Assembly: GCF_032062105.1 (NCBI RefSeq)
Contig: NW_026928756.1
Span: 124,001 to 188,000 of the forward strand
Direction of reading: 5' to 3'
Length of the DNA stretch: 64,000 bases
DNA from: Saccostrea cucullata
Lineage: Eukaryota
The first letter of the stretch is position 1. The number at the start of each line of letters is the position of its first letter. The notes beneath the pieces were generated by a model. It did not search any database, had not been told where the DNA came from, and was given only the letters and a program-made list of their open reading frames with translations. The translations under genes and the position numbers were made by a program. Below are positions 29,351 through 48,755 of the stretch, in pieces.

Positions 29351-32300
29351 TCACAATTCGTCAGTTATAGAACTATAAGGTATTGTGTATTGCGTTGATA
29401 ACATTGGTGATATGTTTGACCACGTGCCGTTATGTTGAGGATTTGGATTTATTTGAAGAATCTTGCACATCAGCTGATATAATTCTACATTATAGAATGG
29501 TTTACTGGTATAATTTTTCTTAAATTCTGAAAAAAAAAGTTTAGATAATTTGACTTTTAGTCTAAGAGTAGTATTTAAAAAAAGGATTCAAAACAAACCT
29601 CAATATAATATTTAAGTGATAGAAAATTCAATAGCAATTATCATACTTATACATGTGTATCACGAATTCGAATATAATTGCAAATTAATTAACACAATTT
29701 TCAATTAAACAGAAGCAATAAATTTACTTACATATTATTTTTCCTATTTAAATGGTTTTGAAATATCTTCTGAGACTTGCAATGAAAGGTCTTAGAATTT
29801 TATTTAATTTAACAAAAATTATAATGTTGAAAAGTATCGTACAAAAATATACTGCAGGTATATAAATTTCCATATGCACTAACCTGGTCCAGATGCCAAA
29901 AATATCGCCCGCATATCGGGATCAGTGTTGTCATAGCCATGCATCCCTCTGATTGGCCCAGTTCCCTCATAATTATAAACGTTCGCATAAGGTATAGTCT
30001 AAAACAAGATGTTTATAATATTCATACATGTTATTATATTTCTTTAATTTTAACTTTTAAATCGTTGAGTCCGAATTTTTCAAAGTCATATATACAACAA
30101 GTATGAAGTATTCAAAATAAAATTAGACATTCGTAGGGAAATATGTTATAAAAATATGGTACAAAGAATAATGATAATAGTTTTTAAAGATTTACATTAC
30201 AATTCCATGTCTTTACATATATGGAAGGTGATCAATTTAAAAATGCAGACAAAATGTATATTTTTCTATGGAAATATAAACTAACATTAATTGTGTTACA
30301 ATGCTTGATATTTGAGTTTTAGATCATCAAACTACAACTTTAACTGTAGAAATACAAATAGACAATACAAATGATAAAAAAATTACTAAACAATAACAAA
30401 AAATACAAAATTTTAATTTTACATATTATCTGGATTTTATTTCAACACGGTAACTCTCCATTTGAAATATAGCTGCACAACTTACACAAGGTGAGCAGCC
30501 CACACATTTACAGGGCAAGGTGATATACACGCCATCATCCGCCTCTATGAATATTGGTGACACCCGATAATGTTTCTTAAGGTTGTATCGTTCTGGAATA
30601 TTGTCCTTCCTGTAGACAGTGAACTTCTTTCCTTCAGCTTCCGCTTGAAGAGCATCATAAACCTGATAAGAACTATGACATTTATTTCTGACACTGTAAT
30701 ACAAATCGACTAGATGAAATAGTATTTTTTATGTTCATATTCCAACTTTTTGCTTCTGTCTGTATTTTACTCGTCCCAATTTGTGTAAAACTTTCATAAG
30801 TAGTAATGTATTTTCCTTCCATGCCCCCCAACCCCGTAATCGAAGATTCGGGGGTATATAGTGTTTGCCCTTTCCATCTGTATGCCTGCCTTTTTGTCTG
30901 TTTATCTGATTGTTTGCTAAAACTTTAACCTTGTCAATAACTTTTGTATTTCTTGTGACAAGAATTTTCTTAGGGTACTACCAAATTGACTCCCTGACTT
31001 TGACCGCAGAATTTGAACCTCTATTGAACACAGTGAACATGATTTTAGCTTAGTTTTGGATAATTTCGCTTTTATTTATTGTACAGCTCGATATAAAGGC
31101 ACTCAGAAGAAAAGAATCGACAGGGTAAAATTGTTTTTAAGGTATCTAATCATTACGAATACAGTGATCATTTAAGATATATAATACAGGGCATTATTTA
31201 TTAGCCTTTTTAAAAAGATATTTAATTAGATGTTAAAATTTAAAAATTTCTTACCTTATCAATAGCACCATCTTTAGGCCAAATTTTGATATTCGCTCCC
31301 TCTGGGATTAATACTGATATATCATCCATATTAATTTTACCACTTAAATCTACTGTTTCTTTTAGGTTCGCCATTCCATGATCAGAAAATATCATAATAC
31401 TGACGTCATCTAAACCTAATGATGTCATTTGTTCTTTGAATTTGTAGATTTCATGGTCAGCTTCTATGATTTTCTCTTTCAGCTGTCTGGAACCAACGCC
31501 GTATTTGTGTCCATAATGATCCACTATTTCACTGTAAATGCCTAAAACAGAAACAAACAATGATAAAGTAATGAAATACATCTGTATATATTTCATTATA
31601 TAATCGCAATTAAACTATACAATGCAATTATTATTGTAATTAATGTAACGATTATTACTATGACACTTTTTTTATAGTTAGGTTATTTTGACGTTCCATT
31701 TAAGATATATAAATACAAATCGAAATGAAAATAATTATTCAAAGTTAACCACAGAGAAGAATATCTTTTCCCATGCATTTGCTGTTGAGGAATAGTAGAA
31801 AATAAAAGTGCATTTACGCAATTTAACAGACACCAAGTTAAACATATATTGGTAGATCTAAAGGTTTAATGTAATGCGTGAAACCTACCTATGAAATCTG
31901 CGGTGTGGTTTTGCAAAAGCTTCAGTGATTCATTAAAAGAAATCTTCATTTCTGGAATTCCAGTCATGCCTTTCCTGGGCATACAATAGGTTGGTTTAAC
32001 TCCCCTTATGGCCACTTCGCACTCTCTCCAGTAAAAGAAGTATGTCTTCTTACCCTAAAGATAAAAATACATTGTAAAACTTTTTCAGATGACTGACACG
32101 TTTCCTACAGCCCTTAAGAAATGAATTCCTAAATATGATACAGCGCAAAATACATACATGTACATGTATGAAACTTCAGGGATGTGCAAGAAAAAGGTAC
32201 ATTTTTTGCATGAATTTTATTTGACGCTTGCTTTTTAACTCCTAGACACATTTAAGCTTATTATCCAAATCACCATATATACTTTTTTAAGAAGTAAATT

Positions 32301-46500: not shown

Positions 46501-48755
46501 ACTTTAGGCAAAATCTGACGTCACTGAATTTACATGATGACGTCAACATAATGATTTTCTCTGATCATGGAATGACCAATATAACCAAGATGGTGAACAT
46601 CACTGATGTATTGGAACTGCAGGACATTAAGGTTATTTTGTCAGAGGTGCCCTATGTCAGTATCTGGCCAATGGATGGAAAACTTGAAAAGGTATCTTGA
46701 AATTATTGTATCTACATTGTATTTTATGAAGAACATTCATCTCGGTCTTTTAAGAAAATTATAAACATATTTAAGAAATAATTGCAGACAGAATTCTTTA
46801 TTATTTCTTGTTTTTAACAAATTTTCATTAAAACATTTAAGGTCTACAATGATTTAGTAACAGCAAACAAGCCCAACATAACAGTTTACAAAAAAGAATC
46901 AATTCCTGCCCGTTATCTTCTGAAGAACCACAAACGTACAGCACCAATCGTAATAGAAGCTGATAGTGGAACAGCAATAATAGCTCCATGGAAATGTAGC
47001 GAATGCGCAGTAAGTATGCATAAACCTGTATCTCTACTAATGGAGAATCAAAGGAGATAATCAAGTTATCAGTGAAGTGTCCACTAACCCTAACAAAACA
47101 ATACTATAGTTAATTATAGTTTACTATAGTTAACTATTGTAAATCAAAGTGTCAAAGTTATCACTGTAGTAGATCAAAGTTTTCAAAGTGTAAACTTTAG
47201 TGTCAAAGTGATCACTTTAGTAAAGCAAAGTTTTCAGAGTGATCACTAGAGTGTCATAGTTATCACTATAGTAAATCAAAGTTATCACTATAGTAAATCA
47301 AAGTTTTTCCATAGTGAATCGAAGTTTAAATAGTGATCACCATGGTAAATCAAAGTTTTCATAGTTTTCACTATAGTAAATCAAAGTGTTCACTATAGTT
47401 AAAGTTTTCAAAGTGTCAAATTGTTCACTATAGTTAACTATAGTAAACTATAACTAACTATAGTATTTTTGTTAGGGTTGTTTGTCCATCAATCAATCGA
47501 GCTTAGAGATAGTTTCCAACTAGTCTGAATTAAGTAAGATTTATTTCATATAGGTCGTCTTATTGGAGGTATACAAACCCGAATTCCTTCATTTCTTGTA
47601 CTCAAGCATATTAAACTTGTCATAATGGACAAAGGGGAGAATAGGAGAATATAAAACAATTTTTCTAACGAACATATGTTAACTCAAGCCTCTTTTTGTT
47701 CATAATTTTATTATTTATATGTTTTTTGCTCTTAAATTTCTGCCTACAAGTTTAAAATCGGTTGCTCAAAGAGGAAAATTCGCTACCTCCAGTATGGCGG
47801 CCAACGGGATATACATGTAAATCTTGCTTAAATCAGGCCAGTCGAAAACTGTCTATAGCCAAACGTAAATATCAATCTTGAGTATCTTTTTTTTTTTTGA
47901 TAATGATATTTTCGGAAATATATAGCTTGATCGATAAACAGAGGAAATACTTACACCGTCTTAACAGATTAAAAGATACTGAAAACTGTATAATCCATTA
48001 AAACTTTTGAAATGCTAATGTCGGTCTGATATTATAAGGAGAGATCTTAAATAAAACATTTTTTTTTACTTATTGGTGTTTTCAGGCAAATTAAATCGCT
48101 ATTAAATTTGTCTCTCTTCGAATATGACGGATTTTTTTATTCATTAATTTTAACCTAGCGTACATGTGTATACATTGTAATTGCTAAAACAATGTAAAAT
48201 GCAACTGCATGGTTTCAGTCTTTCTCGTGATCAACTGTCATGAAAGGTATGATGAACTGAGACTTGCTTATTTTACCCATTGAAAAACTAATGCATTTTT
48301 TTTAAAACTAGGATAAATTTAAACCTGGAACTACCTACAAAGGCATGCACGGATATGACAATACTAATCCAGATATGAGGGGGATTTTTAGAGCAGCCGG
48401 ACCGGGTATGTTTATGTCAAAACCAACAAGACTCTAGAGTTTATTATGCGCACCAGATCAGTGTACATGTATATACATTTTTTTAAGAACAATTTGATAA
48501 TTAAGTACTGGAATGATTTTGTTTTATCATGTCCTTATTTCAGCCTTCAAAAAGAATTTTGTGAGCAATCCGATAGCTAATGTGGAGCTTTATCAAATAA
48601 TGTGTGATATTCTTGAAATAAAACCAAAGGATAACAATGGGACTTGGAGTAATGTCGCACAAATGATGACAAAATCTGACATTTCTTCTGCAAGATCAAC
48701 AAAATTGTTCTTTCCTTTGTTTCTGTTTGTCATGTTTAGTGTTGTTCTCATCTAA
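40590..48755 (+). CDS. ENPP6: ENPP6-like ectonucleotide pyrophosphatase/phosphodiesterase, copy B, ~431 aa, hydrophobic GPI-like C-terminus
   Basis: Exons 40590-40809, 40986-41134, 44706-44868, 46402-46691, 46842-47009, 48312-48405, 48544-48755; 1296 nt. Same intron positions, phases and catalytic motifs as copy A. Ends 'SSARSTKLFFPLFLFVMFSVVLI*'. Confidence 0.9.
41730..41860 (-). mobile_element. Degenerate fragment of a Penelope-like repeat terminus (related fragment at ~11065-11200)
   Basis: Shared 'GAAGATAACGAACA...AAAACACGGACC' core plus 'GGTGGGATCAGGTG...AAGCATCC'. Family assignment is from recollection only. Confidence 0.4.
43604..43966. mobile_element. Kolobok-like MITE
   Basis: TTAA|AGCCATATATGGCGTA...TACGCCATATATGGCT|TTAA. 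Confidence 0.85.
45156..46228 (+). mobile_element. Deleted mariner element
   Basis: TA|CGAGGGTCATTCAAAAA...TTTTTGAATGACCCTCG|TA; remnant transposase N-terminus 'MTSKDVTEQQAAIKFC' at ~45556. Confidence 0.85.
47088..47477. mobile_element. Foldback-like MITE with internal ~20-bp repeats
   Basis: ~50-bp inverted termini CCCTAACAAAA..TACTATAGTTA.. and internal TCACTATAGTAAATCAAAGT repeats. Confidence 0.75.

Follow-up and report, generated by a model that had tools for sequence, protein, structure and literature searches.

An oyster ENPP6-like gene pair: one copy with a GPI-signal-like tail, the other with a conserved xxEL end that probably serves KDEL-receptor retrieval

A 64,000-nt stretch of the Saccostrea cucullata genome (C10893:124001-188000, here called the window, to which positions refer unless a contig is named) contains two divergent ENPP6-like genes with seven coding exons each. 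Copy A starts like a protein with a signal peptide, lacks a hydrophobic tail and has TDEL as its last residues, whereas copy B ends in a tail that resembles a glycosylphosphatidylinositol (GPI) attachment signal. With some reserve, these sequences favor copy A as a soluble phosphodiesterase that is resident in the endoplasmic reticulum (ER) and cis-Golgi through retrieval by the KDEL receptor. Copy B is likely a GPI-anchored choline phosphodiesterase of the cell surface. Direct observation covers the gene structures, the splicing, the tails, their pattern of conservation, the two-zinc and serine set and the ENPP6 fold of a model of copy A. The features of the two genes are as follows.

29351..33040, minus strand: copy A, ENPP6-like gene, seven coding exons, 444 aa, six RNA junctions
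33040-32785, 32612-32455, 32054-31889, 31541-31255, 30662-30486, 29998-29884 and 29526-29351, minus strand: exons of copy A
32954..33040, minus strand: copy A, predicted signal peptide, residues ~1-29, by eye and hydropathy
32813..32815, minus strand: copy A, Ser76 nucleophile (mouse Ser71 in the available part of PMC4757880)
32022..32027, minus strand: copy A, Arg148-Glu149 replacing mouse Pro140-Gly141, insertion loop
31974..31976, minus strand: copy A, Arg165 replacing choline-pocket Tyr157
30486..30515, minus strand: copy A, Cys-rich end of exon 5, with a KCxxC motif exclusive to the oyster A and B types
29351..29526, minus strand: copy A, exon 7, with the last helix, a polar low-confidence tail (436-444) and the stop
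29351..29365, minus strand: copy A, T-D-E-L codons and TGA stop, a likely KDEL-receptor retrieval signal judging by orthologue tails
40590..48755, plus strand: copy B, ENPP6-like gene, seven coding exons, 431 aa, canonical choline pocket, B-type RNA junctions
40590-40809, 40986-41134, 44706-44868, 46402-46691, 46842-47009, 48312-48405 and 48544-48755, plus strand: exons of copy B
40590..40646, plus strand: copy B, predicted signal peptide, residues ~1-19, by eye
48684..48755, plus strand: copy B, GPI-signal-like tail with small residues 409-411, a short polar spacer, hydrophobic residues 416-431 and the stop

Gene models were built by joining exons by coordinates after direct reading of the sequence. 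The intron phases of both copies are identical (1,0,1,0,0,1) and all introns are GT..AG. The predicted copy A protein equals RefSeq XP_062616931.1 (P0122, named ENPP6-like, Saccostrea cucullata) letter for letter. The exon models and the alignment agree with the shared seven-exon structure, metal ligands and serine nucleophile that a first-pass annotation of this DNA had described. Identity between the copies is 50% over 410 columns and is low along the whole length. Their start codons are separated by 7,550 bp, a gap that holds fragments of a long interspersed nuclear element (LINE) and a tandem array.

The C-termini of the two proteins were compared by hydropathy. The best 13-residue value within the last 30 aa was 0.25 for copy A, 2.8 for copy B and 2.84 for mouse ENPP6, in line with the earlier description of a TDEL end without a hydrophobic tail in one copy and a GPI-like tail in the other. 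GPI-anchored proteins carry a signal peptide, small omega residues, a spacer and a terminal hydrophobic run without a cytosolic tail. Copy B ends in an uncharged hydrophobic run of 16 residues (L416-I431), with S409-S410-A411 as candidate small omega residues by eye and hydropathy; no C-terminal GPI signal was found in copy A. An AlphaFold model of copy A, made from a 101-row alignment, has a mean predicted local distance difference test score (pLDDT) of 91.5, and residues 436-444 score below 50, which fits an exposed tail. Its best fold match is mouse ENPP6 (5EGH; template modelling scores 0.82/0.93, E 3.6e-48). The two proteins had been said to diverge right after NGTWSN. They do differ at their ends, but the last helix of copy A (422-428 in the model) extends about 6 residues further and the 50% identity applies throughout.

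RNA support for copy A was drawn from four runs of four studies, with sequences a few percent off the assembly; in the raw-read runs (X20, X21) reads were too sparse for transcript ends or expression levels. All six splice junctions are present in RNA. Junctions 1-3 occur in all three contig runs and the others in one or two, and three were also found in raw reads. A contig of 1,632 nt (X3) covers the entire coding sequence, the stop and part of the 3' untranslated region. It is the one contig that spans the stop, with partial coverage of exon 7 from X10 and raw reads. No alternative joint out of exon 6 or 7, and no other last exon, was seen in the four runs, so the last exon and stop first proposed for copy A stand. 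The end of X3 was read from its listed differences, with 64 further difference rows lying outside that reading; the D, E, L and stop codons are untouched and the two preceding residues are altered, giving SDEL. A 16-base piece of the unplaced 5' RNA end of copy A had no match in the window at two or fewer mismatches. Read-through of the stop as a source of a hydrophobic tail was considered and dropped, since only 10 codons follow and X3 has insertions there.

For copy B, the six junction positions were found in all three contig runs, one of them with shifted ends. X10 extends to 49020, beyond the stop, which marks the hydrophobic tail as the true transcript end. Ten of the 25 listed exonic differences in the B-type contigs match a third copy and the rest match neither. 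The RNA therefore shows B-type transcripts that are not assignable to copy B over the third copy. This third copy is B-like, lies on the same strand as copy B at C10893:189254-201926, starts about 1.2 kb beyond the window end and has exons 91-98% identical to those of copy B. RefSeq XP_062616946.1 (P0154, 764 aa) joins the two, a fusion that is probably an annotation error. Two more B-type copies lie on C8770, one (210876-214735) with an in-frame TGA in exon 4 and the other (250385-254101) with a RefSeq model lacking Asp32.

Relatives were gathered with full-length queries, an exon-4 query alone having given three proteins. Orthologues of copy A end in TDEL in S. echinata (two records), MQEL in Magallana gigas and KHEL in Crassostrea virginica, and a second Magallana paralogue of the A type ends in TDEL or IDEL. 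Among the full-length cluster members listed, MQEL was found in 13/13 for M. gigas and TDEL or IDEL in 14/14 for the second Magallana paralogue. Conservation was scored with one protein from each of four oyster A lineages (69-77% core identity), anchored at the C-terminus. These lineages span Saccostrea, Crassostrea and Magallana, including the two Magallana paralogues, and their tails differ in length by one residue. Positions -1 and -2 (EL) are invariant in all four, and none of the 13 positions from -3 to -15 is; in the core, 226 of the 396 columns are invariant. As far as these alignments go, conservation of the terminal EL is selection-like, beyond chance. The XDEL end expected in orthologues was thus found in looser form: the terminal xxEL is kept, but strict XDEL is not (MQEL, KHEL). 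The hydrophobic tail is kept in all nine oyster B-type rows.

Of the 329 search representatives, counted without their cluster members, 14 have an EL end, and 13 of these belong to the oyster A clade or to a clam clade. The only EL-ended representative outside the two clades (1/316) has a long tail of a different kind. The clam clade, gathered by a profile search seeded with four HxEL-ended hits, includes Mercenaria, Ruditapes, Mactra, Dreissena and Logan records. In 12 of its 14 rows the protein ends in KDEL, HSEL, HLEL, HTEL, HEDL or HTDL; the remaining two break off directly after the end of the second-last exon and look like truncated models. Starts of the clam-clade proteins from named species are signal-peptide-like by eye. 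The HXEL-type and KDEL ends indicate that the ENPP6 fold does bear retrieval tags in bivalves. No clam-type gene was seen in the S. cucullata genome, where best candidates only were scored and the best matches had 27-49% identity, and none of the NPP last exons in the retrieved S. cucullata loci is EL-ended.

Copy A has the attributes of a KDEL-receptor client: a signal peptide by eye, no transmembrane segment and a C-terminus of the class xx[DE][FLM], as given in the available part of PMC2140024. In that text, position -4 prefers K, R, H, N, F, W or Y, position -3 tolerates all residues but Pro, 60 of 152 tested motifs gave partial retention and 35 efficient motifs fell outside the Prosite pattern. 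All KXEL variants bound human ERD21 (PMC2140024), and the C. virginica KHEL end therefore counts for receptor use. One KDEL receptor locus was found in the S. cucullata genome. Several points weigh against efficient retrieval of copy A. TDEL, MQEL, KHEL and IDEL lie outside the Prosite motif [KRHQSA]-[DENQ]-E-L, and the strong residues at -4 do not include T, I, M or S. In human cells, SDEL is a weaker, more Golgi-type signal than KDEL (PMC2140024) and ADEL is mostly secreted, with D50 and E117 as receptor gatekeepers (available part of PMC8248988). D50, E117 and W120 are all present in the oyster receptor, which with its gatekeepers kept should match vertebrate selectivity. The SDEL of X3 adds that -4 drifts even between close relatives. 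No value for TDEL appears in the available text of PMC2140024 or PMC8248988. On this analysis, retrieval of copy A is probably partial; a fixed EL with a drifting -4 fits selection for weak receptor binding.

The strongest alternative is a copy A that is soluble and for the most part secreted, with EL bringing a weak ER or Golgi delay or release under stress. We consider this a real but lesser possibility. The non-canonical and variable -4 position (T, I, M, K or S) agrees with it, as do the conserved gatekeepers together with the failure of ADEL to be retrieved in human cells, and the ENPP6 substrates known so far are extracellular. However, secretion gives no reason to fix EL while the remaining tail turns over, and KHEL in C. 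virginica and the clam KDEL and HxEL ends suggest real receptor use. With retrieval as the preferred reading, the following sequence of events may be proposed. An oyster ENPP6 gene would have duplicated, with B retaining the hydrophobic tail and A losing it. Copy B would be GPI-anchored at the surface and supply phosphocholine as vertebrate ENPP6 does. Copy A would enter the ER as a soluble enzyme after signal peptide cleavage, and its free flexible tail would be bound by the KDEL receptor, so that the enzyme cycles via the cis-Golgi, probably with some leakage. Its lumenal substrates may be lysophospholipids or glycerophosphodiesters, cleaved by the lyso-PLC type of reaction known from ENPP6.

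The catalytic site was compared with that of mouse ENPP6, whose zinc ligands are D32, D193, H197, D240, H241 and H354. Both copies contain the PF01663 domain (Pfam; copy B was scanned via the near-identical P0157) and intact zinc ligands, namely D38, D201, H205, D247, H248 and H368 in copy A and D28, D185, H189, D232, H233 and H343 in copy B. The nucleophile is Ser rather than Thr (S76 in A, S64 in B), as in ENPP6. Y72, Y75, C142 and C154 (mouse numbering), conserved in ENPP6 alone according to the available part of PMC4757880, are present in both copies, the two cysteines as the C142-C154 disulfide pair. In the same text the mouse choline pocket consists of Y72, Y75, Y157 and Y188 with D32 and E190; Y157 hydrogen-bonds E190, P140 packs against the tyrosines and the Y157A mutant failed to express. 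The copy B pocket is complete (Y65, Y68, Y150, Y180 and E182) and canonical at the pocket residues including P140. That of copy A is incomplete: Y157 is replaced by Arg165, with Y72, Y75, Y188 and E190 kept, and Arg and Glu stand for P140 and G141. Sequence comparison thus places copy A as a variant derived from ENPP6 rather than a canonical member. The earlier idea of a duplication that put the same enzyme in two places holds for the duplication, at the level of oysters, and is incomplete for the enzyme, given the altered choline pocket of A.

Pocket residues were counted in the 219 of 313 aligned rows having Ser71 and Cys142. Arg157 is confined to the A clade: nine of the 219 rows have it, and as these come from four lineages they do not amount to nine events. 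An Arg at 140 is present in 15 of 21 rows with an [ED]L end, against one of 198 others, that one being a truncated clam-clade model. Positions 72, 139 and 190 are variable among the clam rows as well. Arg165 may form a pair with the residue equivalent to Glu190, so that the counter-charge for choline is partly masked, and the chances are about even that the head-group preference of copy A is weaker or shifted. Weighing against such a shift, the three cation-pi tyrosines and Glu190 are intact in copy A, and Tyr157 is described chiefly as structural in the available part of PMC4757880.

For tree building, 40 of the 68 aligned rows were used after trimming of signal peptides and tails. Under LG+G4, support was 100/100 for oyster A, 100/99 for oyster B, 83/79 for A and B alone and 100/96 for A and B with three hydrophobic-tailed Pinctada genes; a quick mixture tree agreed, with support of 98 for this last group. 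The clam EL clade (100/99) was placed elsewhere. The KCxxC loop motif marks the oyster A and B types and is absent from every non-oyster row, which favors an origin of A within the oyster cluster, and copy A sits in a B-type gene cluster. Searches turned up no A-type gene for either Ostrea edulis or Pinctada, a negative that argues only weakly for true absence. On the sequences, then, the A/B pair is an oyster-level duplication rather than a bivalve-wide one, and two separate origins of EL-ended ENPP6, in oysters and in clams, are favored. A single ancient ER-type bivalve gene behind both sets of EL-ended enzymes is conceivable but clearly the less probable history. Forcing oyster A and the clam clade together lowered the log-likelihood by 26.1, and the approximately unbiased (AU) test did not reject the joint clade (p=0.11); Arg140 is shared by both clades and nearly confined to them. 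Against a single origin stand the tail-free trees, which put oyster A with oyster B and Pinctada, together with the KCxxC loop and the position of A in a B-type cluster.

It is improbable that the EL end was kept for fold packing or an oligomer contact, or by chance, with no role in sorting. Four independent oyster lineages were sampled and more than half of their core columns are likewise invariant, but the tail lies outside the fold at pLDDT <50, none of positions -3 to -15 is invariant and an EL end is nearly absent outside the two clades. Still more remote, and largely refuted, is the suggestion that TDEL is an annotation or assembly artefact and that A is spliced to a GPI-type last exon: in S. 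cucullata the stop is read by a single RNA contig, but four runs gave no other joint from exon 6 or 7 and the listed Magallana cluster members uniformly keep their EL ends.

Bivalves are rich in aminoethylphosphonate lipids. As a tentative and rather unlikely extension, ENPP6 may have gained an ER-lumen address on two occasions in bivalves, in oysters and in clams, the pocket rim being remodelled each time, and perhaps a cytosolic one on a single occasion, in mussels. The substrate of such intracellular phosphodiesterases would then lack choline; lipids bearing ethanolamine or aminoethylphosphonate are examples.

The mussel homologues P0035 and P0097 (Mytilus edulis), like P0024 and P0033, have 347-399 aa and neither signal peptide nor tail. 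Mussel-type homologues start 10-17 residues ahead of the first catalytic motif and stop directly after the last helix, and Cys142 and Cys154 are absent from three aligned rows. From sequence features such as these, they are possibly a cytosolic version, or else N-terminally truncated models. P0343 and P0335, of which one is from Tegillarca granosa, are ENPP6-like proteins in which a transmembrane segment is joined by a basic tail on the cytosolic side. The last residues of this tail, KNKKLY, resemble a di-lysine ER retrieval motif.

Vertebrate ENPP6 (5EGE/5EGH, PMC4757880) is the best sequence match among solved structures (E 3.4e-85, with the S. echinata orthologue as query), and identity to mouse ENPP6 is 36% for A and 40% for B. 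Copy B resembles it also in Y157, P140 and the GPI-like tail. Copy A differs in its xxEL end, lack of a hydrophobic tail, Y157R, P140R, G141E and a four-Cys loop. Both share the PF01663 phosphodiesterase domain with ENPP1-7 and have the single-domain architecture of ENPP4-7 (available part of PMC8808174). There, ENPP members are transmembrane, GPI-anchored or secreted, and the word 'endoplasmic' is absent from the available text. A literature search of titles and abstract openings, with most subscription journals outside its coverage, returned no ER-retained ENPP. An ESM Atlas search returned generic ENPP clusters only. A precedent is found in mammalian carboxylesterases (available part of PMC5818367), hydrolase paralogues sorted to the ER lumen or the outside by a C-terminal tetrapeptide. 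The clam tails are of the same HXEL type that retains those enzymes (PMC5818367). Unlike the ENPP6 copies, carboxylesterases have an unrelated fold and secretion, not GPI anchoring, as the alternative, and the oyster tags are weaker and non-His. Paralogue sorting by a C-terminal tag is thus a known principle, of which the ENPP6 case is a further variant.

ENPPs are defined as ecto-enzymes, and a lumenal ER member, if true, would extend the family to a further compartment and perhaps to a further substrate. Surface B and lumenal A would form a natural matched pair with few pocket differences, in which sorting and head-group specificity are directly testable, and the oyster tails offer a natural series of weak xxEL signals for a single vertebrate-like KDEL receptor. 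Since RefSeq uses the same name for all copies and fuses B to its neighbor, the distinction is invisible in the annotation. Short of a new substrate, the impact stays within the lipid biology of bivalves.

Elsewhere in the genome, at C17711:200868-206409, two ENPP4/5-like genes with a Thr nucleophile stand in tandem, and both encode hydrophobic tails. The other features of the window are the following.

35415..36983, minus strand: LINE-like reverse transcriptase fragments, part of neither gene
37856..38383, no strand: 72-bp tandem array, intergenic between A and B
18517-19945, plus strand: exons of a tetraspanin gene
7935-15108, plus strand: exon-like frames of a multi-exon gene, in pieces without a Pfam match
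58246-61345, minus strand: broken LINE-like element with an RVT_1 match, related to the element at 35415-36983 (also broken, RVT_1)
61927-63936: Myb/SANT-like frame (plus strand) and DDE_Tnp_4 frame (minus strand)
25717-26451, 12030-12434 and 6767-7085: tandem arrays with periods of 168 bp, 197 bp and 149 bp

The frames at 7935-15108 presumably belong with phytanoyl-CoA dioxygenase-like proteins, which they recall, and the arrangement at 61927-63936 is one that we take to be a Harbinger-type transposon layout.

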